A stretch of 64,000 bases of DNA, taken from the IMG/VR virus record IMGVR_UViG_3300025015_000001, one strand, 5' to 3'. This document shows, in pieces, positions 5,441-41,000 of this stretch. The translations under genes and the position numbers were made by a program. Within the stretch, counting starts at the first letter, position 1. Each line of letters starts with the position of its first letter. The notes beneath the pieces were generated by a model. The model worked only from the letters and a program-made list of their open reading frames with translations, did no database searches and was not told the origin of the DNA. This DNA is from a virus.

Positions 5441-5803
5441 TTACTCCTGGGCTACAGCCTCTTTTATTTCTATGGTAAAAGGAGGTTTTATATTTTTTGC
5501 AGCAGCATCAAGTAGTAGTTGTAAATCCCTTACTGTATTTCTTAAATTTTCTTCAGAAGGTGAGGTATTACTATTATATTTATGTCCATCGGCATATTTT
5601 AAATATGTAAATTCATGTAGTCGAGTAGAATTAATCTGAATTCTTCTGGGTGCGTAGTAGTCCTTATCAATATTAAACCCTAACCTGCAAGCACCTGTAT
5701 AAAGAATATTAAAGTTACTTCCTACAAAATCATCCAATTGATTTCTTAATTGTAAGAACCCATCCACACCAATAGTACCAACAGTAATTGTAAGCTTTTT
5801 CAT
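5441..5803 (-). CDS. hypothetical protein
   Basis: ORF; start refined to MKKLT after a GGAG SD. Confidence 0.6.
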   Translation of the reverse strand: MKKLTITVGTIGVDGFLQLRNQLDDFVGSNFNILYTGACRLGFNIDKDYYAPRRIQINSTRLHEFTYLKYADGHKYNSNTSPSEENLRNTVRDLQLLLDAAAKNIKPPFTIEIKEAVAQE

Positions 5804-6011
5804 ATCTTTCTCCTTTGTGTAAGAAATTGTAGAGTGATTAATCACTCTTCTTTAAATATATTTTATATAACCTAACATACTTTATATAGATTTGATATTA
5901 TAAATATAAAGTTATTAGTTAATACATATTATTATTTTAGATATTCTAAAATGGTTTGATAAGTAATACATATATAAGAAGGTTTTTACCAACCAAAATT
6001 TTCACATTTTA

Positions 6012-6187
6012 CTATGTAAAACTTACATTCCACTATGCAAACTTTGCATAGCTATACATAACTGTATTATATCATTACAGTTTTTGCTATGAAAACTTTG
6101 CATAGTTATATAAACCCATATAAAATAAGGATTGCATTTATAACTATATAGTTTATTTAATAATTTTACTATGAAAAGTTTGCATAG
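6012..6187. repeat. cluster of 19-bp palindromes CTATGNAAASTTTGCATAG
   Basis: Copies at 6033-6051 (perfect), 6087-6105 and 6169-6187; degenerate copy at 6012-6030. Confidence 0.85.
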
Positions 6188-6196
6188 TATAAAATA

Positions 6197-6499
6197 TTAC
6201 ATATTCCTTATTATAAGATAGCGCAAGAAACCACCAGCCTCATGCGTAGCTGATGCGCCTACTATGACCCATTCAAGAATATCATTATTATCTACAGCAG
6301 CTCTAAGATACTCATCACCAAAGATCATCATATCATATCTATCAACTACAGAACTACTAAAGGTTATCCAATGAGTATCTTCTACTATACGAATATCATT
6401 ACTATTGTCATTTATACTGTTTCCAGTAATACTGATTGTTCTATCTTCTGCATAGGATATACTGCCTATACATAATAGTATAGCTAGTAGCACTCTCAT
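6197..6499 (-). CDS. hypothetical protein with a signal-peptide-like N-terminus
   Basis: MRVLLAILLCIGSISYA; GGAGG SD. Confidence 0.65.
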   Translation of the reverse strand: MRVLLAILLCIGSISYAEDRTISITGNSINDNSNDIRIVEDTHWITFSSSVVDRYDMMIFGDEYLRAAVDNNDILEWVIVGASATHEAGGFLRYLIIRNM

Positions 6500-6527
6500 T
6501 TGTTGTCCTCCTTTTGTAATAAATAAA

Positions 6528-6601
6528 TGGCTTACCCGCCTCGACTCGAACGAGGATATCTGACTTCAAAGGACAGCGACTTGCCATTAGTCCACGGGTA
6601 A
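6528..6601 (-). tRNA. tRNA-Gln(UUG)
   Basis: Cloverleaf: acceptor TTACCCG/CGGGTAA, anticodon loop CTTTGAA, T-loop TTCGAGT, encoded CCA. Confidence 0.92.
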
Positions 6602-6821
6602 CTATGCCCTACCATTAGATGACCCCTTAATATTATTTCTCTATTTTATGCAGATTTCAACAGATTTTAAAAACGCAGCAGCAAAATTGACATGTAATGA
6701 TTTCAATAACTTATGTCAAAATTTACGGGGGTTATATAACCTAAACCATAAATATATTTTATTAGATTTCTCACGTACACTCTCATATGCTTTGATTTTC
6801 TCAAGCATGCTCTTGTATGCT

Positions 6822-7022
6822 TCATTTTAAACTCTTTACTATATTATTAATTGACAAGAATTGTTTAGACTCACATCTAGGACAGATCTTACTGGCATGT
6901 ATAGTTTCACAATTTACACACAGTCTAGCTTGTGATAATGGCATGTGATTAGCCACACTAACCTCTTCTTCTGAGTATATCATTACATCATTAGGAATAA
7001 TATTTTTTAATAACCCTATCAT
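6822..7022 (-). CDS. small zinc-ribbon protein
   Basis: CVNC...CPRC; GGAG SD; palindrome variant at 7031. Confidence 0.6.
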   Translation of the reverse strand: MIGLLKNIIPNDVMIYSEEEVSVANHMPLSQARLCVNCETIHASKICPRCESKQFLSINNIVKSLK

Positions 7023-15207: not shown

Positions 15208-15660
15208 ATGCAACAGAAAATAAAAACAATAAAAGACTTTCAAAACATTATTGATAACAAAGCTAATTGGGTATTCTGCCAATATTTTAATGGGCTTGAA
15301 TGGATGCGTCTATGCAGCTCCGCTCGACCTTCTGTAGAGTTTGTAGAGGAATTTATACACAAAATAATTTTTTATTCTATTTCTAAAAATAAATTATTAG
15401 CCAAACCCATCATAGATAAATATTCAGATAAACTAGATTGGCGTCTTATATCACATAATCATGTATTAAATTCTTATTTTGTAAATACTTATTTAGATAG
15501 ATTAAATTTAGAGGTAGTGTTAGATAGAGTGCATAGAATTACTGCTATGAATTTGAAAGAAGATACACTATGTTGCATTAATGAGCATACACTTAAAGTA
15601 GTAAAGTTTACCTTAGAGTTAGACTGGTATTTAAAAGGGGAAAGAAGTGACTACTATTAA
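15208..15660 (+). CDS. hypothetical protein (Trp-repeat-like, KLDWRLIS)
   Basis: ORF; motif resembles tryptophan-repeat family proteins. Confidence 0.6.
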   Translation: MQQKIKTIKDFQNIIDNKANWVFCQYFNGLEWMRLCSSARPSVEFVEEFIHKIIFYSISKNKLLAKPIIDKYSDKLDWRLISHNHVLNSYFVNTYLDRLNLEVVLDRVHRITAMNLKEDTLCCINEHTLKVVKFTLELDWYLKGERSDYY

Positions 15661-15862
15661 TATAAATGATATAGTAAGAGTGAGGTTAACAGAAAAAGGT
15701 AAACATATATATAAATATCATATAGGATTATATAACAGTCTAGATAGAATTAAAGATGGGCTGTTGGAAACTGAATTGTGGGATATTGCCGTTATATTTG
15801 GTGGTGAGTTTTATATGGGCGCAGAGCCTATGTTTGAAAATAATGAAATTATTTTAGTTTAG
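15647..15862 (+). CDS. phage hypothetical protein
   Basis: ORF overlapping the upstream stop codon. Confidence 0.6.
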   Translation: MTTININDIVRVRLTEKGKHIYKYHIGLYNSLDRIKDGLLETELWDIAVIFGGEFYMGAEPMFENNEIILV

Positions 15863-16138
15863 TGGCTTTGCTGATTTAAAATGACGTATTCTCTTTCATG
15901 CCCTACGCTAAGCATCCTACCAACAGAATGGTAGTCTTTTACTTCTTGCTCTCTACTCGCACCATTCATAACCCCATTTCAAATCTTCATTTTTCCTCAA
16001 TAACATTCTCAGGCATTCTGCTGACTATTTTGTTTATATACTGATATTATTTCGTCTGTTCTTTTCATTAATAATGATAACATTTCATCATAATGCTCTA
16101 GATTTTCAAAATCATCTTCTTTTATTTTAAGCATCTAT

Positions 16139-16312
16139 CTACTGCTCCTCCACTACTACCACTGGAATGTCTTCCCAATTAATACCTATGATATCGTTAC
16201 CTTTATCATCTACACCCTTCCATTCAAAAGCTCCTTGTAGAACTGTAGTGTCTTTCTTTTTTAGTAATCGGTATGAGGATGGAGTTAACCTCTTCATTTT
16301 TATATTTTCCAT
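16139..16312 (-). CDS. hypothetical protein
   Basis: ORF in a minus-strand gene run. Confidence 0.5.
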   Translation of the reverse strand: MENIKMKRLTPSSYRLLKKKDTTVLQGAFEWKGVDDKGNDIIGINWEDIPVVVVEEQ

Positions 16313-16316
16313 GTTA

Positions 16317-17108
16317 TTAATCCCATAAACATTCAAAATGATCTATAACCTTCATTAATATCTTTTTTCTTTCTTTGCACTTTTTAGTGTGTTCTACTAT
16401 TACTTTTTTTCTGTCTCTATCAGTTTTACAATTAGCAAAATTTATGTCAGTATTTTCATCCGCGTAGTCTAAGAACGCATCCCCTACTCTGTGTAGTTCG
16501 GCCTGCCACTCTTCAAAAGTTTCAAACTTACTATCAGGCCAACCATGCGTAGTATCGGCTAATTGTTTTAGCCCATTACCGATTATATCAGCTAAGAAAT
16601 AATCGTATGACCAGATATCTCTGTCACTATAACCACGACGACCTCTTTGTACAAAGTATTTAATTTCTCTAGGAAAATCTTTTATTTTATGATAAATCCC
16701 CAAAAATTTTCTACGAAGATATACATAGATATTTCTTGGGAATTTACTATCTTTTATTCTCTGTTTTTCCCATCTTTCTATTATTTCATCCATTGAAAAT
16801 GTTCTAAATGGTTCTGCTGAGACTGCAGTTGTGCCCGTTAGCGTAAATTTAACTGTATCGTCTATAGGAGGAAAAATTGACCGACTCTTAGTCAGACCAT
16901 CGTACATAAAATTCAAATCTGGAAACTTAAGCTTAGATGTATTTACAGCATGATCTCTTAGTATAACAGAGTAATCTTTTTTACTTTTTTCCCTACTAAG
17001 TTTCTTTAAGTTTTCTGCTGGAGTTTCCTCATTAGATTTTATTTTTTTAATAAAATCTTTAGCATCCATATCGGTTAGTATTGGTGTTTCTGCTATTTTC
17101 CTAGCCAT
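16317..17108 (-). CDS. hypothetical protein
   Basis: 263-aa ORF with an SD. Confidence 0.75.
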   Translation of the reverse strand: MARKIAETPILTDMDAKDFIKKIKSNEETPAENLKKLSREKSKKDYSVILRDHAVNTSKLKFPDLNFMYDGLTKSRSIFPPIDDTVKFTLTGTTAVSAEPFRTFSMDEIIERWEKQRIKDSKFPRNIYVYLRRKFLGIYHKIKDFPREIKYFVQRGRRGYSDRDIWSYDYFLADIIGNGLKQLADTTHGWPDSKFETFEEWQAELHRVGDAFLDYADENTDINFANCKTDRDRKKVIVEHTKKCKERKKILMKVIDHFECLWD

Positions 17109-17146
17109 TTATTTATCTCCATTTATTGTTTAGCCTCTGTAGACTA

Positions 17147-17539
17147 CTACTTTTGCCATAGCATATCTATGGTGTTAATAACTTTTTTTAAATCTATTAT
17201 AGCCTCTTTTGGTATGTTATATAATATAGATTTATCAGTATAACACACACTATCATATTTATCTTTTACCATTAAAGCGGGAGCACCGCACATATTACTA
17301 AAAGATATTCGTATATTATTATAGTTTTTATAAGGTATTCCTGTTTTAGATAATGTATAATTTTTAGATACTAGGTACTCTACTATCTTGTATTCCTCTA
17401 CTAAGCCTTCATCATTACATATCCTCTCTATCTCCTCTCTACCTCTAATACATTCTTTGCAGAGAAATGCTTTTTCTCTTGCAAATTTTGGCGGTTCTTC
17501 TTTGGTTTCGCATTTTGTGCAGGTATATAGTTTTGTCAT
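17147..17539 (-). CDS. hypothetical zinc-binding protein
   Basis: CTKC...CKEC at the N-terminus. Confidence 0.7.
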   Translation of the reverse strand: MTKLYTCTKCETKEEPPKFAREKAFLCKECIRGREEIERICNDEGLVEEYKIVEYLVSKNYTLSKTGIPYKNYNNIRISFSNMCGAPALMVKDKYDSVCYTDKSILYNIPKEAIIDLKKVINTIDMLWQK

Positions 17540-17665
17540 TTTATGTAATTCCTTAATTATCTGATTAGTGGATTAACATCGTTTTAATAGTCTCTGTGGC
17601 TAGCCATGATGTACAAACCATTCTCGTGCTTTCTGATTCATTTTCATCTCATCCCAAAACCGTGA

Positions 17666-17896
17666 CTACTCTGCTGGGTTCCTACTGCTGAAGAGGAGAT
17701 ATTTCTTCAAATTGCTGTGTAGCACTAATAGGTGCTTTACAGCCGCAAAAGGGACAAAATTAACTGGGTTTCCTAAGTATCCTTCTTTTCCCTGTACCCA
17801 AAATGTCCCGTTAGATTCTTCAGTACAACTATCAAGTTGCTGTTGATAGTTGTTTACTTCGTAAAATTTAGTATAATCACAACTATGCCTTGTCAT
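17666..17896 (-). CDS. hypothetical protein adjacent to the first attC
   Basis: GGAGG SD immediately next to the attC R'' site at 17914. Confidence 0.6.
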   Translation of the reverse strand: MTRHSCDYTKFYEVNNYQQQLDSCTEESNGTFWVQGKEGYLGNPVNFVPFAAVKHLLVLHSNLKKYLLFSSRNPAE

Positions 17897-17913
17897 ACAA
17901 AAATGTAACCTCC

Positions 17914-17973
17914 TTATAACAGGCGGATGCAATAGATTCCACTTTGCTACACTATTGATCCTTGGCGTTGGGC
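17914..17973 (+). other. attC site 1
   Basis: TTATAAC AGGCG GATGCAAT...ATTGATC CTTGGC GTTGGGC, with an extrahelical G. Confidence 0.8.
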
Positions 17974-17974
17974 G

Positions 17975-18229
17975 TTAGTAGTCATAGAAGCCTTCGATCT
18001 CTTTCCCGTCCGCATAAATGCCACCTTCGTGTGGCTGTAAACTACTCACAGTTTCCTCACCATCTGCGCTTAACTCATGCCGGTAAATGTCATCGCTGTT
18101 ACCACCATAACCGCATGTCAGCCGCTTTCCATCTGGAAGGTCTGCCTCATAAGTGAAAGTGTATTTGTAGTAGCTCGAAAACTTTACTTTCACGCTCCCA
18201 TATTTATGGTAAAATTCTTGCCTTGTCAT
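17975..18229 (-). CDS. cassette-borne hypothetical protein (84 aa)
   Basis: Fills the cassette at 17968-18311. Confidence 0.75.
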   Translation of the reverse strand: MTRQEFYHKYGSVKVKFSSYYKYTFTYEADLPDGKRLTCGYGGNSDDIYRHELSADGEETVSSLQPHEGGIYADGKEIEGFYDY

Positions 18230-18254
18230 AACTCACCTCTTCGATTAAAGTTCA

Positions 18255-18317
18255 GCCCAATCCATCGTTCAACCCGGACTCCGCAAAAGCGCGGAGCCGG
18301 TTAACTCTACGTTATAT
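18255..18317 (+). other. attC site 2
   Basis: GCCCAAT CCATC GTTCAACC...GGTTAAC TCTAC GTTATAT. Confidence 0.85.
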
Positions 18318-18319
18318 TT

Positions 18320-18888
18320 TTAAACCTGCGCTAAAAGCAGACCCCATTGGTCTGCCATTCCAGCGGCTATCCCTTGGAATGTTTTACTGCGTTCTTTCCA
18401 CCTATCAGGACTTGGCGGCATCCTGTGAATCCGACTTTCTCTCCCGTCCACGATATTCGTCGGTTTTAATGGCGGCAAACCTTTCAGCCAAAGACACGTT
18501 GCCTTTGTCTCCCCGTGCCCGAATTGCCACGGCTGTATCAATTGGTCAGGCTTCCGCCACAGTGATGACATAATACATACTGGGTTTTCTATTGCAATCT
18601 TTGGAATATCAGCCGTTGCCAGCATCATAAAAAAGCTGATTGCACTTTGCTGCCGTCCATCCAGTTTCTTGGCGGTAAAATGTTTTGCCCCCGATACAGA
18701 TAAATGGGTACATGGCGGGTGCGCTATCATTATATCCCAACATCCATGTATTACGTCTCTGATATCCCCTGATAATGCGCGCCAGGGGAATCAGTCGGCA
18801 AAATATCACAGGACATTGCGTCATGCCCCCTTTCAATAAACGCATCCCGAACTATTCCGCTGAATTCACACGCGACTAAAACTCTCAA
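18320..18888 (-). CDS. phage DNA cytosine methyltransferase-like protein (frameshifted at the G4 run, 18766-18769)
   Basis: LRVLVACEFSGIVRDAF, AHPPCTHL (catalytic PPC), ENP, IQPWQFGH; one extra G restores QGDIRDVIHGCWDIMIAHPPC. Confidence 0.8.
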
Positions 18889-19026
18889 TCGTAATCTCCT
18901 GGCGGTGGCCCGTCTCCCGATGTCCCCCCGCCAAGGGCTGCAATACATATAAGCAAAAAAATAATCCCAAATATCATCAGTTCCAATTCTAACCCCCTAT
19001 GGCTTCCAGCCAGCGCAGATTTAAAA

Positions 19027-19086
19027 ATATAACCAGTCGCTCAAGAGGGATGCGATAAGGCCGCACCCCTTAGCTTGGCGTTAGGT
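19027..19086 (+). other. attC site 3
   Basis: ATATAAC CAGTC GCTCAAGA...CCTTAGC TTGGC GTTAGGT. Confidence 0.85.
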
Positions 19087-19242
19087 GCGAACCCACACCA
19101 CTTCAGTTCCTAGCCAAAAAATACTGGTACATTTGCCCCAAACAACAATCTTTGGAAAAATCCGGTACTTTGGGTATCCACCCGCAAATAACAATTTGCC
19201 TCCAATTAAAGTTTTTCCGCGAGTCCACTTGTTAATGTTCAT
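19081..19242 (-). CDS. cassette-borne hypothetical protein (53 aa, MNINKWTRGKTL...)
   Basis: Manually translated; its TAA stop is the TTA of the R' site. Confidence 0.55.
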   Translation of the reverse strand: MNINKWTRGKTLIGGKLLFAGGYPKYRIFPKIVVWGKCTSIFWLGTEVVWVRT

Positions 19243-19250
19243 GCAATCGC

Positions 19251-19335
19251 ACCTAACTGTGTGTTCGAGGCGGACGCGGAATTACGCCGCGCCTAGTTTT
19301 ACTTCTTGGCCGCGCCGCTCAACACGGCGTTCTCC
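19251..19335 (+). other. attC site 4
   Basis: ACCTAAC TGTGT GTTCGAGG...GCTCAAC ACGGC GTTCTCC. Confidence 0.8.
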
Positions 19336-19598
19336 CGGTGCTTCGCGCCGTGAGAATGCGGAGCTAAGCCGAACCCGCCACCCATCAGCTCGTCATGCGC
19401 CCCGTGAAACTTGGCTACGCATTCTGGCAGTCGTTGCAGCCATCCATCAACATCATCCAGTGGCACATCTCCGAATAGACGACATACCCCCTCAGTTCCA
19501 AACCTGCGGGCGAACACAAACGGACACATCGAGCCGGGGTAAGACGGCGGTTCGCTGCATGTCGTTTCGCCTGTGTGAAAAATCAAAACCTGCTTCAT
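19299..19598 (-). CDS. cassette-borne hypothetical protein
   Basis: GGAGG SD; reads through a degenerate attC half and into attC 4. Confidence 0.55.
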   Translation of the reverse strand: MKQVLIFHTGETTCSEPPSYPGSMCPFVFARRFGTEGVCRLFGDVPLDDVDGWLQRLPECVAKFHGAHDELMGGGFGLAPHSHGAKHRENAVLSGAAKK

Positions 19599-19622
19599 TG
19601 TTTCCTCCGTAGTTGTTGCAGA

Positions 19623-19678
19623 TCCTAACCGTCAATCAACGCGGACGGCTTCCATCTGCCGTTATTTCGGCGTTAATA
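19623..19678 (+). other. attC site 5
   Basis: TCCTAAC CGTCA ATCAACGC...CGTTATT TCGGC GTTAATA. Confidence 0.8.
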
Positions 19679-19680
19679 TC

Positions 19681-19860
19681 CTACTTTTGTTTTTTTGGAT
19701 AAGCAATATTTAGCGTCCATGATATTGTAGTATTCTTTCCACAATGCCTACATGCCCATTCAACTGAATACCCTTGAGGGACATCAAACTGGAAATTAAG
19801 AGGGGTAATATTTCTTTTTTCACAATGAATACATTTCCAATTAAACTTTGTTTTATCCAT
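19681..19860 (-). CDS. cassette-borne zinc-ribbon protein (59 aa)
   Basis: Manually translated MDKTKFNWKCIHC...ACRHCGK. Confidence 0.6.
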   Translation of the reverse strand: MDKTKFNWKCIHCEKRNITPLNFQFDVPQGYSVEWACRHCGKNTTISWTLNIAYPKKQK

Positions 19861-19876
19861 ATACGTATCTCATCTC

Positions 19877-19925
19877 ACCCAACCAGCCGTTCAAGCCGAT
19901 GAACGACTTAACTCATTCGTTATAT
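19877..19925 (+). other. attC site 6 (short)
   Basis: ACCCAAC CAGCC GTTCAAGC CGATGAACG ACTTAAC TCATTC GTTATAT. Confidence 0.8.
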
Positions 19926-20330
19926 TTTGAAAATCACTATTGCACTCGGAAAAGGCGCACTGTTGGCTTGCCCTCCGAATTTCAGCCGTCCTCTAATAAA
20001 TCTTATTTCACCCTTTACCGCGTAATCGTGCCACCATGCCGTGTCCGTTCTCGCCGGAACAAGACAAACCACCGTTGCACCGGCGCGTGAGCTTTCGTAT
20101 GCCTTACGCATCCAGCGGGCTATTTCCCGGCCATACGGCTGGTTCATCCAGCAGATCCCGCGCCACTCTTGCTTTAAGCCGTCTTGTTCCGGCGAGAAGA
20201 AGCGCGGACACTTTGCGTTTTCCGGTATCGCGCATACGTCAAGAGCAAAACCAAATTCCTCGTGCAATTTGTCGAACGTGGCCTGTGGTGTGCTCCATAA
20301 ATCTGTCTCTGACGAAAAATGTACGTTCAT
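19920..20330 (-). CDS. phage DNA N6-adenine methyltransferase (Dam-like, PF05869 type)
   Basis: DLWSTPQ..F..L..EFGFALDVCA; WMNQPY (NPPY variant); LVPARTDTAWW; GRLKF; APFPS. Confidence 0.88.
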   Translation of the reverse strand: MNVHFSSETDLWSTPQATFDKLHEEFGFALDVCAIPENAKCPRFFSPEQDGLKQEWRGICWMNQPYGREIARWMRKAYESSRAGATVVCLVPARTDTAWWHDYAVKGEIRFIRGRLKFGGQANSAPFPSAIVIFKI

Positions 20331-20342
20331 AAAAACCTCAAA

Positions 20343-20401
20343 ATATAACCAGTCATTCGAGCCGACTCCGCTTCGCTGCGCGGCTCAATTCTTTGTTATG
20401 T
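20343..20401 (+). other. attC site 7 (aadA-like 59-be)
   Basis: ATATAAC CAGTC ATTCGAGC CGACTCCGCTTCGCTGCGCG GCTCAAT TCTTT GTTATGT, close to the classical aadA attC top strand. Confidence 0.92.
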
Positions 20402-20956
20402 GCTCTTTTTGTCCGTTGTTTCATACTCCGCTGCGGATTCCTTGTAGTAGGCATCCATCTGCTTCATTGTCACTTTCTTCCAGTCTTGGAACGTCCGAGG
20501 GTTCCGGTAGTCGCTGAACTGGAAGCGGTTACGGACATCCAATGTCACGGAACCGTCATCGTGAAAAACGGGCTGGCATCCCAGGACAATGTAAGCGTCA
20601 TTCTTGCGGCAGACCTTGTGCCAGCGGTCGTTAAACTCGAACTGCTTGTCATCCCATTTCCACTGTGGGCGATTTGCTACCCGTTCGCGGTCATAGAAGT
20701 TGAGCCCGACATTTTCCCACCAGCAAAGTTCCCCATCCTCGATACTTTCCAGCAGGTACTTCGGCCATCCATTGTTCTGGTCATATTCCCGGAACCAAGA
20801 CAGATACCACTTTGACGGCGGTGCAGAGGTCAGCGAAACGAGGTCGCCGACTTGTGGCTTATCGTTACCAAAATCCGACCGCCAATCCTTATTGTTGATC
20901 GTCGGAAACGACATCAACTCACTCAGTATCATCAATCTCGCTCTATTTTTTGCCAC
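20396..20956 (-). CDS. cassette-borne hypothetical protein (Trp-rich)
   Basis: GTG start after a GGGG SD; TAA stop within R'. Confidence 0.7.
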   Translation of the reverse strand: MAKNRARLMILSELMSFPTINNKDWRSDFGNDKPQVGDLVSLTSAPPSKWYLSWFREYDQNNGWPKYLLESIEDGELCWWENVGLNFYDRERVANRPQWKWDDKQFEFNDRWHKVCRKNDAYIVLGCQPVFHDDGSVTLDVRNRFQFSDYRNPRTFQDWKKVTMKQMDAYYKESAAEYETTDKKST

Positions 20957-20976
20957 GTAATCCCCCTTGAATCCGC

Positions 20977-21037
20977 ACATAACAAGCCGCAGCAGACAGA
21001 CTGCGCTCCGCTTGCTGCTGTGCTAAATACGTTAGGA
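20977..21037 (+). other. attC site 8
   Basis: ACATAAC AAGCC GCAGCAG...CTGTGC TAAATAC GTTAGGA. Confidence 0.8.
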
Positions 21038-21262
21038 TTTCACTTTGAGAATATCGGCCATTTCTTCGTCGGATAATTTATCATGCACTTTAATATGCTC
21101 CGCTCCGTGGACGATGAGCTGTTCGAGGTCGTAGGTGATAAAACCAAAAGACACCCACCCAAGACAAACGCGGTACAAGAATCCTGCCGCAATTTCGATC
21201 CTGAAACCGCCGTATGTTTTCCCGATACAAAAATATCCGCTGAATCCGCGTGGTATATTCAA
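21032..21262 (-). CDS. cassette-borne hypothetical protein
   Basis: GGAGGAG SD with a TTG start; TAA stop within R'. Confidence 0.6.
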   Translation of the reverse strand: MNIPRGFSGYFCIGKTYGGFRIEIAAGFLYRVCLGWVSFGFITYDLEQLIVHGAEHIKVHDKLSDEEMADILKVKS

Positions 21263-21273
21263 AGCTCCTCCAA

Positions 21274-21331
21274 TCCTAACCATAAAATCGACGGCGACGC
21301 GCTTCGCTTGCGCGTCATTTTGGTGTTAATC
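21274..21331 (+). other. attC site 9
   Basis: TCCTAAC CATAA AATCGACG...CGTCATT TTGGT GTTAATC. Confidence 0.85.
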
Positions 21332-21589
21332 TATGCAATGCTTTTCTAACTCTCTGATCTGTGATAATAAGTCTGTCACTATCATTTTCTCAGTAGCAAG
21401 CTCTTCTTTGAGATGCTTATTCTCATTTTCGAGATATCGTAACTTGCAAAAAGGACAAATACCATCATGCAATACAGTCTTATCACAATCACAAGTCTCA
21501 AGACTAACGCCAGCATCCAGCGGACTCACTATCTCCCGGCCTGTGCTTTTCTCGTATGTCTTGCCGTCTTTAAACTCTATATTGTCCAT
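21326..21589 (-). CDS. cassette-borne hypothetical protein with Zn-finger and coiled-coil features
   Basis: GGAG SD; CDC...CPFC; TAA stop within R'. Confidence 0.6.
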   Translation of the reverse strand: MDNIEFKDGKTYEKSTGREIVSPLDAGVSLETCDCDKTVLHDGICPFCKLRYLENENKHLKEELATEKMIVTDLLSQIRELEKHCID

Positions 21590-21621
21590 ATATCTCCTGC
21601 CGCTGGATGCTGGCGTTAGGC
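21502..21621 (+). other. attC-like site 10 with perfect 20-bp arms
   Basis: CTAACGCCAGCATCCAGCGG (21504-21523) is the exact reverse complement of 21600-21619. Confidence 0.65.
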
Positions 21622-21800
21622 TCCAACAACTCAACCCCGACCACGTTGGCATGTGAATATGCCCCGTAGGCATCGCGCAGGTACTTTTCTACTTCTGGAA
21701 TATCCAGATCAAATGTTTTGTGCTTTGTTTCCACGCTAACGCTACCACCAACATTTGCAGCCATACTTGCATCATCTACTCGAACTATTATGCGAATCAT
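21570..21800 (-). CDS. cassette-borne hypothetical protein
   Basis: GGAGAGG SD; first gene downstream of the array promoter. Confidence 0.6.
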   Translation of the reverse strand: MIRIIVRVDDASMAANVGGSVSVETKHKTFDLDIPEVEKYLRDAYGAYSHANVVGVELLEPNASIQRQEIYGQYRV

Positions 21801-21823
21801 TGCATCCTCTCCATTTCTTTTGC

Positions 21824-21882
21824 GCCTAACTGGCGCTTCAACCGGACGCCCGAACTGCCTTGTTATAATCTAGGCGTTACAT
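21824..21882 (+). other. terminal attC site 11 (degenerate right arm)
   Basis: GCCTAAC TGGCG CTTCAACC...GGC GTTACAT. Confidence 0.6.
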
Positions 21883-21909
21883 TGTATATCATTTATCTTA
21901 AAAAGTCAA
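21881..21909 (-). promoter_or_regulatory. sigma70-type promoter pointing into the cassette array
   Basis: TTGACT (21909-21904)-N17-TACAAT (21886-21881). Confidence 0.7.
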
Positions 21910-21911
21910 TA

Positions 21912-22568
21912 TTAACATTTTCTGTTTAATCTTGTATTTATAATGCTTAATTGATTACTATAAATATGCAGCCCATCCGAGGCGTAATATATTTTACCAT
22001 TTTCTAAATTTGCCTCGGAGGATACTAGTTGTTTTAATAATTCTAACCCCGCCAAATTTGTTGGAAAGCCTCCGTAAAGATCGTTTGATCTAAAGAATAT
22101 AGACATGTTTAATTTATTGTCTACTACTTTGAAAGTAAGCGTTCTGAGGCATGGTGGGTCAGTCTTAAATATATCACCAGAAGAAGCTATCTCAAGCGCA
22201 GCTTGATTCGTATATGGAGTAGCTTTTAACATCTCTATCAGTGTGTTTATATATGGTTTTATACGAGAACCATACGTGTAAATTTCATTTTCTTTTAACT
22301 CATCATTCATTAAATACATAGCAAAATAATCTTCTACATATGACATAGTAGTGGGGGCCAATGATTCCATTCCCTGCGGCATAATAGGAATCATATCTAT
22401 ACTTGGGTGCTCTATTTCTATTGCGACAAAAGGGTATTGTATTCTATAGTTTTCCTCACCAGAAAAAGACCCTCTTTGTATGATCTGTTTGTATCCATAC
22501 TCTTGTATGTTGTATAACAGTCCAAACCATGCATCCGAGATACTGTAATATTTATTTGAATAAATCAT
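21912..22568 (-). CDS. thyA: thymidylate synthase family protein (short type)
   Basis: YTYGSR, DPPCL (catalytic Cys), FRSNDLYGGFPTN (Asn implies a dUMP substrate), LHIY. Confidence 0.8.
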   Translation of the reverse strand: MIYSNKYYSISDAWFGLLYNIQEYGYKQIIQRGSFSGEENYRIQYPFVAIEIEHPSIDMIPIMPQGMESLAPTTMSYVEDYFAMYLMNDELKENEIYTYGSRIKPYINTLIEMLKATPYTNQAALEIASSGDIFKTDPPCLRTLTFKVVDNKLNMSIFFRSNDLYGGFPTNLAGLELLKQLVSSEANLENGKIYYASDGLHIYSNQLSIINTRLNRKC

Positions 22569-24035: not shown

Positions 24036-24389
24036 TCATAGCTCAATTTTCTTTATATTATTTAATGCATTTGCTGGAGCTAATATTATCCCGGAACACT
24101 TTGCCATAATTCCTTCATAATTTTTGTATAATTGCATTGTATCAGTAATCTCTGATATTGCTCCAATATGAACGTGAATATCCGATGGCTTGTCTACCCC
24201 ATGAATAATTGGCTGTAACATAGCACCAACTTGCATTATTACTCCTTCTGGAGTAAGCGCATTTACATCTCTTATTTTAAAAGCATCATATAGGCTAAGC
24301 CCAAAATCACCATCATAATTTTTTATCTTACCAATATATGATGAACCACCTGTGTCCACCAAAACTAATGTATCATTTTGATATTTCAT
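24036..24389 (-). CDS. hypothetical protein
   Basis: ORF abutting the recA stop codon. Confidence 0.7.
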
Positions 24390-26680
24390 TTAATCTCCTT
24401 TAACTTACTCTCAATTTCTTTTTTAATATTATCGTTAGCTTCTAAATACTCTATAGTCTTATCTCTGCCATGTCCAATGTTTTCTCCGTTATATTTATAC
24501 CAGGCTCCTGACTTTTCTATTATACCATAATTTTCAGATAAGTCAACAATTTCTCCTATACGATCAATACCTTTTCCATAAATTAAATCAAAATCACACT
24601 CACTGAACGGTGGTGCTACCTTATTTTTAACAACCTTTACATGAACCTTTTGCCCAAGTATCTTATCGCCCTCTTTTATAGTTTCCCTTTTCTTTGTCTC
24701 CAACCTAACAGAAGAATAAAATTTGAGAGCATTTCCTGATGTAGTAACATTCGGGTCACCATACGAAATAAGTTTTTGCCTTATTTGATTGATGAATATT
24801 GCTATTGTATTTGTTTTTGATATAGTAGCTGTGAGCTTTCTACAGTTGTGTACAACCATATTATCTATAATGAAATTAGGAGAATCGTTTACAGATATAT
24901 CATATACTTTAGACATGCCACATTCTGTTACTGATTCCACCTTTGACCAACATAATTCTCCGTTAGATAAATCAAATAGTTCCTCATTTTTTATAAATTT
25001 AGATATTTTAAATAAAATATCACGTGAAATTTTTAATCTATTTGGCCTAAATTCTGGGAAGGAGGTTCTGTTTGTATAACCAATCAAATGTGATATGTCT
25101 TTCCCAGTAAAACCAGCAGCATATGTATATTTTTTTATCTTTTCAAAAACTGAGTAAGGCAACATCTCTTCTCTAGAAATTTGATCTGATTTATACTCCT
25201 TATTTTTAAATAAGGCTCTAAGTTTAGCGTCCTTACAACCAACCAAACCTATGCTATCCAAAAATATTTTAGTATTTTTTCGTCCTAAAATATTTAATTT
25301 ATACAAATTATGGTAAGGTTCTCTAGTTGACATTATTATTTTACTATGAATCCCAAAGCGTAGTAATAAATGTTTTAGTTGCTTAATCATTTTCTGTGAC
25401 GTTGAGCTGTACACAATGTTACCATTAACAACATGCCCGTCTGTAGACCATAATCTAGAGATAAATAAAGCCAGCTCAGTATTATTTAGCGTAAAGATTT
25501 CGCTTGGTATGTATTTTTGTGGAGATTTTTTGCCATGCATCCCTAATTTCTTTAATAGTTCTTTTACTGGTGACTTAAAAGACCCTAAAGGTAGACTCTC
25601 GTCTTTTATTATACGGTAACTTTTATGGTCTATTGCTTTTAACTTACAATTAAAACTTTTTAGTGCATCAGCTAAGTCACTAATTACTACTGGGTCCATC
25701 TTAGTAAAGCTAAGGCCATAGTTAGGTGTTGTAAAATTACCATCTCCTAAAATATAAGCTATTATTTTTATGGCGTCCGAACTCAGCGTTGTCTTGTAAT
25801 TTTTTATTTCTGGTATTCTGTATGGGGTTGCTATATAGTCCGTTGGTGTTAAATCCTTAACATCTTTCCAGCCGATAAATGTTAATACTTTATGATCCCC
25901 GGTTAATTTCAGTACACTACTATTATCTAATTTTACTTTATATACTGTCCTACTTCCTTGGTCAAACCAATCGCCTATACTAGAGATAATAAATTTCTTA
26001 GTGCCTTCATTGTATGTTGTGGTATTCCAATCTAATTTGTTATTAACAATATTTTTGATAGTCTCAATATTTCCGGTCAAAGGGTCAAATAATTCTGTAT
26101 CTTCCGCCAAGCATGCTTGACTGAGCAAGCGGGCTTGGAGCCCCATATGACTCTGCCCCATCTCCCCCTCTAACTCAGCTTTTGGTACTAAGGCTGCAAC
26201 AGAATCGATCACCACCACCCCTATTGAACCGCTGCTTATCAATGTATCCGCTATCTCAAGTGCTTCTTCTCCCGTTGTCGTCTGGCTTATAAGTAATTCA
26301 TTTACATTAACTCCATATGTTTTAGCTAAATTAATATCCAAAGCATGCTCAGCATCTATGAAAGCACACGTCTCACCCAACTTCTGGGCTTCCCTTATTA
26401 CGTGCAACGCTAACGTCGTCTTGGAAGACCCCTCGAATCCATATATTTCAACTATCCTCCCGCGCGGAAGCCCTCCTACTCCTAAAGCATTATCAAGCCC
26501 CATGGACCCTGTGGATATGGTTTCTGTCTTTTCTATATTAGCACTATTAAATTTCATAATAGCACCATTACCAAACTGTTTCTTTATATCAGCAAGCGCT
26601 TTATCTAGGCTTTCTACTTTACCTTTTTTTTCTATTTCTTGATAAGATGTTTCTTCTTTTACTTTCTTTTCTCTTGCCAT
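24386..26680 (-). CDS. recA: RecA recombinase containing an intein
   Basis: [46 protein letters not shown]; start refined to MAREKK. Confidence 0.95.
24845..26113 (-). mobile_element. LAGLIDADG intein in recA (423 aa)
   Basis: SQA|CLAEDT...VVHN|CRKL; IAYILGDG and [10 protein letters not shown] endonuclease motifs. Confidence 0.92.
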
Positions 26681-26712
26681 GTAATTGCTCCTACTTTGCA
26701 TTTAATATGTTT

Positions 26713-33944: not shown

Positions 33945-36515
33945 TTATATTTTTAAGGGCTCTAGCTCACCCCAGTTTCTCCCGTACTCTAGATCAACCT
34001 TAATTGGACAAAGCTTTTCAAATGGTACTGGTACATTTTCCATAATTGTTTTAACTACTTTAGCAGTCCTCATTAGTTCGTCTGGAGGGCATTCTAAAAT
34101 TATGGAGTCATGCACTGTATTTATGATTCTAGATTTCATATTATTAATTTTAAAATACTTATTAATATTATATAGAGCTAACATTAACATATCTGAAGCT
34201 GAAGACTGAACAGGGGCATTGATCCCTTGACGCTCAGCAGATCCTTTTAAATATTTATTATTTGAATTTATATTCTCTATCTTACGTTTTCTGCCAAATA
34301 AATTCTTAACATACCCTGTTTTACGTATACCCGACAAAAGCTTACCATACCATCCAGGTAAGCCCGAATAGAGTTTAAAATACTTATTTCTTATCTCTTC
34401 CGCTTGCTCTAATGTAAAATCAGTATCATACCCTTTTTTCGCATATATTACAAGACCTTGAGCGGACATACCATAAATTAGTCCAAAATTTATTGACTTC
34501 CCAGCCTGCCTTTCTTTTTTTGTGATATCCTCTATTCTTTTATTAAAAATAGTTGCCGGTGTTATTTTATGAATATCTTTGTCTTCAATATAAGCCTGCA
34601 GCATATTTGTCTCATTAGCTATTATAGCAGCTATTCTTAATTCTATCTGAGAATAATCGGCCTGTAATATATACCAATCAGGATGAGAGGGAACAAACAT
34701 TTTCTTAATTTCTTTTCCCATATCCCCCCTAGAGGGTACGTTTTGAAGATTTGGTGTGCTGGATGAGCTGCGGCCTGTAGCTGTTACAGCTTGATTATAA
34801 TTACAATGTATTTTACCATCATTTTTTAAATGATCTTGTGTTAATGGTGTTATATACGTTCCTATAGCCTTCTCGTATTTTCTATATGCCAATAAGTCTG
34901 CTACAAATGAACTTTGATTTTCTAACTTCTTAAGAGAATCAACGTCAACAGATCTTTTACCTGTATCAGTTAATTTTGGGCATTTTAATTTTAACTCATC
35001 ATATATAAAATTAGCTATATCATTACTAGAATTAATATTAAAAAAGTCCTCTGCTTTCATTTTTTCAAATTCAGTTAGTAGCTTAACCGACTTAATAAAA
35101 GAATTCTGCCCATTTATATACTCATTATATGTCCATCTTTGTATTTCATTTTCTTTTTCTGGGTATAGCTCTGCGCCTAATTTTTTAATTGCCCTAAATC
35201 TTCCCGGTTCGTATAAGTTTCCTAGTAGCTGATTTTTACTATCTTCATACTGCTTGAGTAATTTAACACCTTGCGCTACATCTATTTTAGATCCAGTTAA
35301 TTCTATTTCGGTAAGAACTTCATTACCGGGCATAACTACACTAAAAAATAAATCGTATAGTTCTTCTTGCTTAAGTTTTTCCATTAGTATACTATAGACT
35401 AGCATTGTATTGTGCGTGTCTTCACAATTATATCGTGCTAAATCATTTAATGGAATCTTATCATTCTCCACACCGTCTTTTAGTACAGAATAATTTTCTG
35501 TGTATCCTAATAATTCTACTGCTAAACGTTTAAGATTATTAGAGCTACCATCCCCTTGTGCGAGCAGGGAATTGGCTAGCATAGTATCAGCATAAGCATC
35601 TATATTAGACAATCCCAATAATTGCATGGTATTTTTAATATCAAATTTAATATTGTGGCCTAAACGCTTAGAATTATTATGTAATATCTCATCTAAATAT
35701 TTTACTACCATATCTTTTGTATAGTCTGCTATTGTTTCTGGATGATCCACTGGAATACAAAAACTCTCTAATTTATCTGTAGTAAATCCTATCGTCATAA
35801 TCTTATTATGTGGAGAAAAAGCATCTAACCCATAATCTCCTCCTATAGTCTCTATGTCAAATGAATAGTATTCTGCTTCATTTAATTTTTGTTTAGCATA
35901 TTCTAAATCTTCTATAGTTTTACATAGCAAAAATTTAATATCCTGCCCTGATTTTATCTCATTATTAACTATTTTACGTGCTTTTATTAAATCATTATTA
36001 AATATTTCTATTTCATTCTTATTATTAAGAACGTATTCAATATCATATATAGGAAAAATATTCAGATTATTTTTCTTAAATAATTCCCCTCTGGTCTTTT
36101 TGGGCTGAGCTTTTCCTAAGAAAAATTTCTGAGGATAATCTCCTATAGCAATTATAAGTTTAAGATTGGGCATTTGCTCTATTAAAGCTATTAGATTTAT
36201 CCCACAGGATTTAACTTGATCAATGGGGAGTGTGAATGGTAATTTAGGAAGATTGCATAATAACGAATATGTTACTACACAATTTTCTGTTGCTATATTT
36301 GCATCAATTAAGGATTGTTTTAGAAAACGACCTTCTTGGGAGGCGAATGGGCTTTTATACTTTAGTTCCACTAAAGATGGGAAATTTCTTACTATTAGTA
36401 TTTCTGATGTATCTATGTCACCAAATACTGGTATTTTATTCTGATCTAATTTACAGGTACTGCAATCATAAACTTTTTTTCTGCTGGTTTTAACCAACTT
36501 AGGTAATGCCGCCAT
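33945..36515 (-). CDS. polA: family A DNA polymerase with an N-terminal UDG-like domain and 3'-5' exonuclease
   Basis: SFDIET, GHNIKFD, YNCED; QADYSQIELR, RQAGKSINFGLIYG, TVHDSI; N-terminal CSTC UDG-like domain. Confidence 0.93.
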   Translation of the reverse strand: MAALPKLVKTSRKKVYDCSTCKLDQNKIPVFGDIDTSEILIVRNFPSLVELKYKSPFASQEGRFLKQSLIDANIATENCVVTYSLLCNLPKLPFTLPIDQVKSCGINLIALIEQMPNLKLIIAIGDYPQKFFLGKAQPKKTRGELFKKNNLNIFPIYDIEYVLNNKNEIEIFNNDLIKARKIVNNEIKSGQDIKFLLCKTIEDLEYAKQKLNEAEYYSFDIETIGGDYGLDAFSPHNKIMTIGFTTDKLESFCIPVDHPETIADYTKDMVVKYLDEILHNNSKRLGHNIKFDIKNTMQLLGLSNIDAYADTMLANSLLAQGDGSSNNLKRLAVELLGYTENYSVLKDGVENDKIPLNDLARYNCEDTHNTMLVYSILMEKLKQEELYDLFFSVVMPGNEVLTEIELTGSKIDVAQGVKLLKQYEDSKNQLLGNLYEPGRFRAIKKLGAELYPEKENEIQRWTYNEYINGQNSFIKSVKLLTEFEKMKAEDFFNINSSNDIANFIYDELKLKCPKLTDTGKRSVDVDSLKKLENQSSFVADLLAYRKYEKAIGTYITPLTQDHLKNDGKIHCNYNQAVTATGRSSSSTPNLQNVPSRGDMGKEIKKMFVPSHPDWYILQADYSQIELRIAAIIANETNMLQAYIEDKDIHKITPATIFNKRIEDITKKERQAGKSINFGLIYGMSAQGLVIYAKKGYDTDFTLEQAEEIRNKYFKLYSGLPGWYGKLLSGIRKTGYVKNLFGRKRKIENINSNNKYLKGSAERQGINAPVQSSASDMLMLALYNINKYFKINNMKSRIINTVHDSIILECPPDELMRTAKVVKTIMENVPVPFEKLCPIKVDLEYGRNWGELEPLKI

Positions 36516-38072: not shown

Positions 38073-41000
38073 TTAAAGTTCACAACTACCAGAAGTACAG
38101 GCTAATTCCTGACTACCAATAGTCTTATCCTCCTGTTCATATATTTTCAGTAAATCCCAATCAATTTTAACAGGCATATCTTCTATTAAAGAAAGATATT
38201 CTTTTTCTGAGATACTTTCATAAGGTTGTTGTTTATATGTATGCTCTGCTAAAGGTAAAAAAGAAACCCCACCTATTGAATCAAAATGCTTGTAAACCCA
38301 TGCTCCCACATCTAACCATTCTTCTTCTTTAACGTATACAGTTATGGAAGGATTATGCTCACACCAACTTTCTCGATAATGTAGCCAATGCTCTAATTGT
38401 TTAATAGCATTAATATCCTCTACACATATAGCAGAATCTGGACTTTTTTGGGGGAAACTAAATATATACAAAGAAGTGTTTAGGAGGTCTTCCTCATATG
38501 GAATTTTATGTTCAATAAGAACAGAAGATATTGGATCTTTTTTATCTAATCTAATCCTTCTTATAAAGAACTTTGAAAACCTTGGATGAATGCCTGACGA
38601 AGAATTAACTAACTGTGAAACTGTACCAGAAGGCTTAACTGCTGTTATAGCCATAGCAGAATTTATTCCCAATATCTCAGCATATTCCTTGTTAGTTGTA
38701 ATAGCTATATTTTTTAGAGAGTCTAGTAGACTTGGAAGTTTTTCCATATTTGATAATATTGAAAAATTTATGTTATCCATAATACCTGTCAAAGAGACAC
38801 CTAGTAATGCCTCTTCTTTTGTATTATCTGTCCATATCTTTCGTAAATATCTAAAATCAGACAGTGTTGCCTGTAGCGTCCCTAAAATAGTTGCTAATTT
38901 TACTTTAGTTTGAATAGCCTCTATAGTATCAAAATCTCGTATAATGACCTCTGAAAGATTACATACTTGATTTGGTCGTAAAATTATCTCAGCGCAGGGG
39001 TTCATTCCAAAATCTCTACCACTATCCCTCCTACCTGTTTTTTCTGCCTGTGCTTGTAGTGCTTTTCTATTAATAATCCCTCGTTCCCCACTTTTACTAT
39101 TATAAAGAGATAACCATTCCTGTATAAAAATACCTGTATCTGGACGCTCTGTATAAACTGCTGAGTTATTGGCAAGCTGTCTTTGTGGATTTTCTATCCA
39201 CCACTGCCCATTTTTTGCAACACGCATTCTATCATCAGAAACATTTGATAAACTTATCAATGATGAATTATGGGTGAGAATCCCACTTACTAAGAAACAG
39301 GCATCATTCTCCACCTGAATATCATAAGTATTTTTTTCTATTTCTGTCTTTTCAACACCTACAACTTTAATTGGTAGGTAAGTAAATTCTTTATTAGTAG
39401 TTTTAATGAATTTATGAAAACTTAAGTATATAGCTGATTTTCTTCTACAACTACAGTAGGAAGATGAAAACAATTTTTTATAAGAGGATTTTTTTAATAG
39501 ATTTTCGGGGACAACATATCCTCGTTCAGCTCTTTTTTCTACAAAAGAAGAGTCTTTTTCCCATTTAGAAGAGTATTTACCTATCTTCTGTCCAAAATCT
39601 TTAACTATGAATTGTCCTATAAGATTTAATCTATATAAACTTTTCCAATTAGGCTTATAATTTTCTTTTCTATCCAATTTTAAACAGGAAGGGATTCCTA
39701 AAGATGCTAATAATCCCTGTACCTGCTTTAGATATTCAGGGTACACTGAAGAAGCAACACAAATGGGTCTATTTCTTAGACTTCCATCAGCATCAAAAAG
39801 TCCTGCTATATATGCAGCCCGTATTTCAGATGTTCCTTCTAATATAAAGGTAGGAATATCAATACTTATTTTAGGTTTTTTAAATTGAGAAAGATATTCC
39901 GCTAATTGTTTAGAGGCAACTTCTGGTTTAGAACAATTTTCAGTAGTCATATGTTTAGGATTTATTTTTATACCAAAGCGTTCTAATTGTCTCATGACTC
40001 TCTTATGCTGCTCTGGTAGAGTATTAGCACATGCTATTGTGACTTTATCTGAACAATCATTTATCTTCCTATCAAATGTTCCTACATAACCATCCCCATG
40101 TAGCTGTCCAAAAAACCAAGCTAATTCTTCATCTAATTCAGGAATGGTAATATCTTTACAAGTTGAGGACATTTTAGGTTTATTGTACAACCATGAAGGT
40201 AATTGAGTTTTAGTGCCCTCAGTGGTTTCTGGAATAAACACTAAAGTATCAGTCTCTGCTAAATCTTTAGCCTCTTTATAAGAAACACCCCCCTCTAAAT
40301 CTGACAATACTGCCCATCTATGCTCATAACTACTCTCAAATACCCCCAACTGTGTTTTAATAGCTATCATATTTTTTAAACCTGTATTCTCAACAGCAAT
40401 AACTTTAGAATATTTATCTTTCCCTGTAGCTACTTCATCATCTATAGTGATATCTTTTATTTTTTTCAATCCTTTTCGTGTACTTATCATAGAATTTTCA
40501 GGTAAACATCTACGAACTCCACCAGATACTACAACTTCAGCTACTTTGCACATCAAATCATGACATTCAATAGAAGTCAACTTTCGACCAGAAGCCCCTT
40601 TAAAAATCTGAACAGCAAATTTAAATAATGCTTCCAAAGGTTCTTTTCCAGAAGCTCGACCACCAAAAGTTTTCAGTTTTGCCCCTTTAGGTCTAATTTT
40701 AGACATATCCCATTTAGGCACTTGTCCATTCCATAGTAAAGAAAGTAACTCCCTAAAAGCAGTTGCCCACCCTATTTTGGAATCCTTAATAATAATAATT
40801 GTATCAGTATCACTAAAAGTTTCAGCTATTTCTGGCAGTTGGTTAATGTACTGTCTTTCTACACTGAACCCAATTCCTGCACCACACATAAGAATATACA
40901 TGGCCTCATCAAAAACTTTAGGTGAGTCAATTGGTGAGTAACTACAGTTAAAGGCAGCGATGTTGTCTTTTTCTAGTGCTTTTCCAGCAGTCATTAAAGC

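Follow-up and report, generated by a model that had tools for sequence, protein, structure and literature searches.

Strand choice at attC sites is taught as the device by which integrons orient promoterless cassette genes behind the promoter Pc. Cassette arrays without a nearby integrase (clusters of attC sites lacking integron-integrases, CALINs) have also been published from phages, some of them virulent; these arrays hold 2-4 sites each, carry DNA methyltransferases as cargo and were called similar to bacterial arrays, and some of the phage attC sites recombine with IntI1 (Qi et al. 2023, PMC9892861). The strand of the cassette genes relative to the attC strand is not addressed in that work. 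Here, we describe a 64,000-nucleotide stretch of phage DNA (hereafter the window), which is the minus strand of positions 34270-98269 in the 194,269-bp virus record IMGVR_UViG_3300025015_000001. A GC-rich island within the window is a genuine integron cassette array of the CALIN type, one of three in this 194-kb phage, and all of its cassette genes lie on the bottom strand of the attC sites. The same layout recurs in further phage arrays and contrasts with that of bacterial integrons carrying the same attC core, which suggests that the array probably represents a phage-specific class of mirrored cassettes that is transcribed from an adjoining phage promoter.

Like the published phage CALINs, the phage carries integrase-free attC arrays with methyltransferases among the cargo, but it has three arrays with 18 model-supported sites and all genes on the bottom strand. 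With canonical cassettes of class 1 and chromosomal integrons, the units share the R''/R' boxes, the L boxes with two extra bases and the single-gene organization, and the related phage integrons described below also share the geometry relative to intI. In contrast to canonical cassettes, the gene is on the bottom strand, its stop lies at the crossover in R' rather than in or before R'', and its own attC site is located upstream; a gene mirrored in this way cannot be expressed from the Pc next to intI. Canonical cassettes have been found to insert at genomic attG sites in E. coli (Loot et al., preprint 10.1101/2022.09.11.507474). Such insertions would account for cassette entry into an attI-free genome at a bare GTT, with expression from a promoter nearby, and the right junction of the array, G|TTACAT next to a promoter, fits; neither phage targets nor mirrored polarity are reported in the attG work. 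Cassettes with a promoter of their own, e.g. toxin-antitoxin cassettes in Vibrio chromosomal integrons, are known exceptions to expression from Pc (PMC13108822). Those occur singly within canonical arrays. The phage, by contrast, has entire arrays of mirrored units, whose compactness leaves no space for an internal promoter outside attC. T4-type phages reportedly harbor mobile regulatory cassettes, units of an early promoter and a stem-loop that flank small genes, which Arbiol and colleagues are said to have described in 2010; an early promoter in every intergenic unit was not found in the array. A published description of mirrored phage cassettes or of a phage-specific integron integrase clade was not found in the literature. 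Phage CALINs and their methyltransferase cargo are already known, and it is the mirrored polarity that is without a match found in print.

Results

A GC-rich island in a T4-like groundwater phage carries attC sites

The phage record has direct terminal repeats and is rated complete. The phage was recovered from groundwater and is large and T4-like by gene content, with a UvsW-like helicase, an RNA ligase and a thymidylate synthase encoded in the window. When the thymidylate synthase, which is encoded at the array flank, was used as query for close phage relatives, all matches were <40% identical. The GC content is 0.47 at 18-22 kb and 0.29-0.35 in the remainder of the window. The edges of the island are sharp (~17.9 and ~21.88 kb), and the 17.9-21.9 kb interval carries 11 hairpin junctions (S0, S1 and S3-S11; Table 1). 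An imperfect hairpin bounded by ...AAC and GTT... lies between every pair of minus-strand open reading frames (ORFs). Tested against the R''/R' consensus (RYYYAAC, GTTRRRY), all 11 junctions displayed the AAC/GTT cores, except for an AAT in R'' of S1, and the full 7-nucleotide consensus was matched or nearly matched at most of them.

A sharp GC step together with attC repeats that are abundant in the community could also result from an assembly chimera, in which a fragment of a bacterial integron has been joined to a phage contig. The stretch is, however, contained in groundwater metagenomes from several studies. Contigs spanning 15650-18294 and 21207-22388 come from a study other than the likely source; they cross the two junctions of the GC-rich array with the AT-rich backbone and thereby give independent support to both. 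The sequence across the junctions is also 100% identical in two more assemblies, and the strand of the cassette genes agrees with that of the flanking phage genes. We therefore rejected a chimera, the probability of which we regard as negligible.

The plus strand of the window is the attC top strand

The first-pass annotation of the sequence had taken an extra base in the sites and an aadA-like sequence as marks of the plus strand being the attC top strand, which was borne out by sequence similarity, bulge position and covariance models. A BLAST search of a plasmid collection showed that the plus strand of S7 is 89% identical over 46 nucleotides to the attC top strand of catB10 and 92% identical over 39 nucleotides to that of qacL. 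Both matches are located on the coding strand of the resistance gene, directly 3' of the stop codon, in two class 1 integrons; therefore, the plus strand of the window corresponds to the attC top strand. As minimum-energy folding of the sites gave inconsistent structures, it was replaced by arm-to-arm alignment and covariance models. In the arm alignment of seven real attC sites from the two class 1 integron loci, which served as reference, the top strands exhibited single extra bases in the 5' arm at about positions 16 and 23. The same two bulges occur in the plus-strand 5' arm of S1, S3, S6, S7 and S9.

The first covariance model (R1) was built from the attC top strands of aadA8, catB10 and qacL only, a limitation to three 60-nucleotide sites that was necessary because MAFFT misaligned longer real attC sites. 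R1 placed the held-out attC sites of cmlA1, aacA4 and blaGES-5 on the correct strand (3/3). Over the 64-kb window, it gave seven matches at E<1, all within the array and all on the plus strand, so that 7/11 sites are matched, with scores between 12.9 and 58 bits (Table 1). A second model (R2), made from 16 phage-array sites oriented by R1, recovered 8/8 real class 1 attC sites on the coding strand at 32-72 bits without any reverse matches. The array thus comprises seven model-supported sites on one strand within 3.5 kb, as expected for a CALIN. It is not part of a complete integron with intI, adjacent attI and Pc: a search for the integron integrase family TIGR02249 gave no match across the whole 194-kb phage, and the phage promoter lies at the opposite array end. 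At the terminal site S11, the GC-rich DNA stops where a crossover at G|TT on the plus strand would put the junction.

Cassette genes are located on the bottom strand and end at R'

An independent gene caller, applied to two 100%-identical contigs, placed all genes of the array on the minus strand of the window, in line with the first-pass annotation, and five of these units have homology at the protein level (the 84-residue, 186/194-residue and 99-residue products, the phrog_757 methyltransferase and the Dam methyltransferase). None of the array genes follows the canonical arrangement (top strand of attC, 3' end by R''); all are on the bottom strand. The annotation had further listed five TAA stops that coincide exactly with the TTA of the R' GTTA (19081, 19920, 20396, 21032 and 21326), and all of them were recovered. 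Two more had been placed within 10 nucleotides of this position. This holds for the stop at 18320, which lies 10 nucleotides beyond the G of R', while the one at 17975 turned out to be exact as well, coinciding with a second GTTA in tandem. A distance within 10 nucleotides also applies to two other stops, at 19299 (GTTTTA) and 19681 (TAG).

The 84-residue ORF is 61-62% identical over 100% of its length to annotated genes of the Synechococcus phages S-PM2, B3 and B23 (tblastn). For the 99-residue ORF, the homologue P0251 is encoded between the genes for SSB and DNMK in a phage early region, leaving no room for an attC site. The phrog_757 methyltransferase is split: in the profile, ORF 18751-18948 corresponds to positions 12-57 (the N-terminal part) and ORF 18320-18730 to positions 77-223 (the C-terminal part). 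This break is probably not a read error, because the same break occurs in 100%-identical contigs from other assemblies.

Within the same methyltransferase cassette, we noted a 30-codon ORF at 18885-18977 on the minus strand, which overlaps the broken N-terminal part and encodes a hydrophobic peptide beginning with MIFGIIFLLICIAAL.

Table 1 Sites, cassette genes and promoter of the array in window coordinates (bits and E values refer to model R1).
Feature	Position	Strand	Remarks
S0	17914..17973	+	weak attC-like; R' GTTGGGC followed by second GTTAG; 14.1 bits, E 0.1; edge of GC island
84-residue cassette ORF	17975..18229	-	T4-like phage gene family; stop = TTA of GTTAG
S1 attC	18255..18316	+	18.6 bits; 5'-arm bulges; core identical to Gallionella-type chromosomal integron attC
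DNA methyltransferase cassette, phrog_757	18320..18948	-	split over two frames; frameshifted or pseudogene
S3 attC	19027..19086	+	R'' ATATAAC, R' GTTAGGT; 18.8 bits; extra C and A on 5' arm
53-residue cassette ORF	19081..19242	-	stop = TTA of S3 GTTAGGT; fills 162 of 164 nt of gap
S4, degenerate attC-like	19251..19302	+	R'' ACCTAAC, R' GTTTTAC; by eye; partial match 11 bits, E 1.4
99-residue cassette ORF	19299..19598	-	34 homologues; family otherwise an ordinary phage early gene
S5, degenerate attC-like	19623..19678	+	R'' TCCTAAC, R' GTTAATA; by eye
59-residue cassette ORF, zinc-ribbon-like	19681..19860	-	weak zf-BED and zinc-ribbon matches; fills 180 of 198 nt of gap
S6 attC	19877..19925	+	short, 49 nt; 19.3 bits
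Dam-type DNA N6-adenine methyltransferase cassette	19920..20330	-	PF05869 1.3e-30; phrog_111 1.7e-55; stop = TTA of S6 GTTATAT
S7 attC	20343..20401	+	close relative of class 1 aadA, catB10 and qacL attC; 58 bits
186-194-residue cassette ORF	20396..20980	-	144 homologues; stop = TTA of S7 GTTATGT
S8, attC-like, ambiguous polarity	20977..21037	+	12.9 bits, E 0.28; extra bases on 3' arm by eye
83-residue cassette ORF	21032..21283	-	stop = TTA of S8 GTTAGGA
S9 attC	21274..21331	+	16.5 bits
87-residue cassette ORF	21326..21589	-	stop = TTA of S9 GTTAATC; start inside S10 loop
S10, symmetric palindrome	21502..21621	+	23-nt arms 96% complementary, gapless; 76-nt loop; AAC/GTT cores, no bulge
76-residue cassette ORF	21570..21800	-	reads through S10 right arm, ends in 76-nt loop; overlaps next ORF by 20 nt
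S11, terminal attC-like	21824..21882	+	GC-rich cassette DNA meets AT-rich backbone at G|TTACAT
Sigma-70-like promoter, TTGACT-17-TACAAT	21881..21909	-	abuts last R', directed along cassette genes; 10/12 consensus positions

Bacterial integrons with the same attC core have canonical polarity

The core of S1 (18266-18314) reached a depth of 113-190x in groundwater runs, compared with ~6x for the phage. Its flanks were many and varied, so that numerous other cassettes in the community must contain this site. An exact search with the S1 core (35 specified bases) returned five genomes, named Gallionella, Gallionellales, Betaproteobacteria or Burkholderiales. Together they contain 29 attC matches, which are uniform in strand within each locus and on the strand of which R1 agrees. 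All five genomes (5/5) encode an IntI (471-496 bits) arranged 5'-to-5' with the array, which is the canonical geometry. The top strand as called by the models is directed away from the 5' end of intI in the bacterial as well as in the phage integrons.

We then determined for each gap between neighboring attC sites the strand with an ORF covering >=80% of it. The phage set consisted of the three arrays of the phage and five further viral loci introduced below (L027, L030, L044, L056 and L058), and the bacterial set included a class 1 array. Among the bacterial intervals, such an ORF was present on the top strand only in 18 cases, on the bottom strand only in none (0/28), on both strands in one and on neither in nine. 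The corresponding numbers for the phage intervals were one, 22, eight and six. The difference in gap-filling strand (18 top and 0 bottom versus 1 top and 22 bottom; Fisher p = 9e-11) is descriptive only, because the intervals lack independence and the phage's own sequences led to the loci. Inverted ORFs are not equally common in the phage and bacterial arrays compared here; the literature searched gave no baseline of how often genes in bacterial arrays are inverted.

This comparison bears on the assignment of polarity itself. Viewed on the coding strand, each phage gene ends in RYYYAAC followed by a hairpin, as canonical cassettes also do, and the inversion is visible only in the bulge side, the resemblance to real top strands and where the crossover falls. 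If the bulges did not decide the strand in this attC family and the plus strand were the one used, the cassettes would be ordinary. We consider this very unlikely, since Gallionella-type integrons with this attC family carry their genes on the opposite strand, the top strand is directed away from the intI 5' end in bacteria and phages, as recombination of the attC bottom strand with attI predicts, and the GC-rich DNA stops exactly at G|TT of the last site.

Mirrored arrays recur in the phage and in other viral contigs

Applied to the whole phage genome, R2 detected the 18 sites in three arrays, all on one strand; the five sites of array 1 had played no part in building the model. The ORFs in arrays 1 and 2 are likewise opposite to the attC strand, with the TAA in the R' GTTA at several junctions, so that the mirrored polarity holds in 3/3 arrays of the phage.

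Direct copies of a phage hairpin, CTCTAGGCT(A/G)TGCCTAG, border array 2 at either end and have similar flanks (~6942-6960 and ~8940-8958 in contig L005, i.e. ~104.9 and ~106.9 kb of the phage). One copy scores as an intrinsic terminator, and a target duplication of this kind is not expected from integrase-mediated insertion.

Relatives of the cargo were then considered. The closest homologues of the 194-residue protein are encoded by inverted cassettes as well, whereas the more distant ones are plain phage genes. One of the close homologues resides on an unrelated viral contig (L030) with four attC matches opposite to the gene. The other (L027) is found in an array of five attC matches, again opposite to the genes, directly 5' of an integron integrase gene (5634-6794), the product of which scores 307.5 bits against TIGR02249 (cut-off 265). 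In 11/12 viral loci encoding 194-residue homologues an attC match was absent, although divergent sites could be missed. Two cargo families (194 and 99 residues) occur in phage early regions as tightly packed ordinary genes without attC matches (L029, L031-L041 and L059), and the cargo families are phage-type by their PHROG matches and unlike the sampled bacterial cassettes. These data fit the earlier suggestion that phage genes are a source of cassettes. With the same families present both as cassettes and as ordinary phage genes, cassette origin becomes a testable question, and one can look for intermediates.

The integrase of L027 belongs to a group of about 85 clusters with lengths of 385-389 residues, of which eight members were sampled (L027, L042-L044 and L055-L058). 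All eight ~387-residue integrases are encoded in phage contigs, between the early/replication genes and the terminase gene and codirectional with them. In a quick tree, the group formed one side of a branch with a support of 97 (Shimodaira-Hasegawa-like approximate likelihood-ratio test, SH-aLRT), apart from shorter and from Gallionella-type integrases. L027, L044, L056 and L058 each contain 2-6 attC matches, which are all located 5' of intI and on the strand opposite to it; genes between the sites are directed toward intI. An inverted group of integron integrases, from Treponema and others, has been mentioned before (Cury et al. 2016, PMC4889954). The phage integrons have in common with it that intI and the cassette genes are codirectional. 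In the Treponema-type group, intI precedes the array and shares its strand with the attC sites. In the phage integrons, the array comes first and intI is encoded opposite to the attC top strand, which is the ordinary integron arrangement; only the orientation of the genes differs.

Positions 2440-4929 of L057, immediately upstream of its intI, encode a reverse transcriptase, a bAvd accessory protein and a protein with an Lcl_C domain, which together form a diversity-generating retroelement.

The recurrence of the layout also allows weighing whether phage transcription has simply acted as a sieve, with bottom-strand-gene cassettes being rare in every pool and retained here since the arrays landed antisense to phage transcription. 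Insertion at a genomic GTT is possible in either orientation (10.1101/2022.09.11.507474), and the nine bacterial intervals that no single ORF fills on either strand leave some room for such cassettes. However, the relative polarity is the same in all three arrays of the phage and in 4/4 arrays beside a phage integrase, bottom-only intervals are missing from the bacterial set, and the cargo is of phage type rather than that of the sampled bacterial cassettes. We thus regard a mere sieve as improbable.

A sigma-70-like promoter abuts the array

The best promoter match in the array region is TTGACT-17-TACAAT, which directly adjoins the last R' and is oriented along the cassette genes (Table 1). 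Among the promoter-like sites of the array region, none recurs at the junctions. The promoter-side boundaries read TACAATGTAA|C in array 3, the array of the window, and TGTATAA|C in array 1, with GC-rich hairpin DNA following directly in both. Some of the array hairpins score terminator-like.

Discussion

The three arrays of the phage, the unrelated contig L030, the four intI-linked phage contigs, the canonical polarity of the bacterial integrons and the promoter at the array edge all support what the first-pass annotation had proposed, i.e. a distinct inverted class of cassettes tied to phage transcription, and we regard the existence of such a phage-specific class as probable. On its coding strand, a mirrored cassette consists of a C, its own attC hairpin, a ribosome-binding site, the gene and the TAA. 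The gene resides on the attC bottom strand, i.e. the strand that integron integrases normally recombine, and the crossover (TAA|C, the complement of G|TTA in R') would fall directly after the stop codon. Such a cassette could insert scarlessly at AA|C behind any phage gene or promoter, leaving the upstream stop and the downstream context intact, and it would be read by one-directional phage transcription, the source of which may here be the promoter abutting the last R'.

Because the phage is without an integrase, recombination would need an external IntI, for which the host or a co-infecting temperate phage might be the source. Candidate hosts are Gallionella-type Betaproteobacteria, which possess IntI and an identical attC core, and it is the shared core that points to them. 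The mirrored polarity may have arisen on temperate-phage integrons in which intI is codirectional with the early genes. As phage transcription runs one way through such an array into intI, only bottom-strand genes would be expressed, and we infer that this one-way transcription is the selective reason for the mirrored class. The two DNA methyltransferases plausibly counter restriction; the rest of the cargo consists of small phage orphan genes.

Several observations weigh against a phage-specific mirrored class that is read from the abutting promoter. Four of the 11 window junctions (S4, S5, S10 and S11) have no reported match in either model and can be called attC-like only on visual inspection, which for S8 is ambiguous. 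The array region contains 8 promoter-like sites versus 8.0 in shuffled sequences. Within the sampled integrase group, L042, L055 and L057 are without an attC match and L043 has one weak match, so that three or four of the eight lack a clear array. The comparison set is small and was gathered by homology to the phage cassettes, by the attC core and by the linked integrase rather than at random, and the phage intervals include the eight with long ORFs on both strands, the six with none and the one favoring the top strand (in L056). The host assignment is uncertain, because the phage has a GC content of 31-34% and Gallionella-type genomes are far GC-richer. Finally, part of the array may be decaying, since one methyltransferase cassette is broken.

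Decay would be general if the array were a fossil of an old entry, in which the hairpins now serve only as intergenic elements of the phage (terminators, RNA stabilizers or translation spacers) and the uniform orientation reflects a few old insertions kept by selection for expression, with no living mirrored pool behind them. The four degenerate or atypical junctions, among them the symmetric palindrome without bulges, agree with this, as do the frameshifted methyltransferase, the terminator-like scores of some hairpins and the missing integrase. In contigs of four groundwater runs, neither joints nor cassette-sized gaps indicating cassette turnover were found; since contigs drop rare variants, this counts neither for nor against mobility. 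On the other hand, three separate arrays with different cargo share the same polarity, an attC core is identical over 35 specified bases to that of integrase-bearing bacterial integrons from the same type of habitat, and the closest homologue of one cassette is part of an array beside an intact phage IntI. A fossil array is therefore unlikely in our view, albeit less so than a mere sieve, and the mirrored cassettes of the phage may still be mobile at present.

Beyond the mirrored class itself, phages may run a parallel integron system, in which a dedicated clade of ~387-residue integrases works on a mirror-polarity pool of phage genes and uses the attC sites of the host; to this wider proposal we give slightly less than an even chance. 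If true, unrelated phages within one host range, from 40-kb temperate phages to a 194-kb T4-like one, could swap accessory and anti-restriction genes at stop-codon-precise junctions, and standard surveys that expect genes on the attC strand would miss this cargo. Correspondingly, annotation pipelines looking for cassette genes solely on the attC strand would lose phage cassettes or annotate them wrongly. A bottom-strand class tied to phages would show that the orientation rule depends on the platform and not on the chemistry of recombination. Phages and hosts share attC sites yet appear to keep separate gene pools, and the methyltransferases would place phage counter-defense within swappable cargo.

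Other features of the window

Outside the array, the window encodes three products that each contain one intein with a LAGLIDADG homing endonuclease (24386-26701, 38073-41195 and 60549-63815): a RecA-like protein, a ribonucleotide reductase and a third large protein. Positions 33945-36515 encode a family A DNA polymerase fused to a uracil-DNA glycosylase domain. A 1211-residue fusion of an ATP-dependent ligase and a LigD-type primase-polymerase is encoded at 55475-59110.

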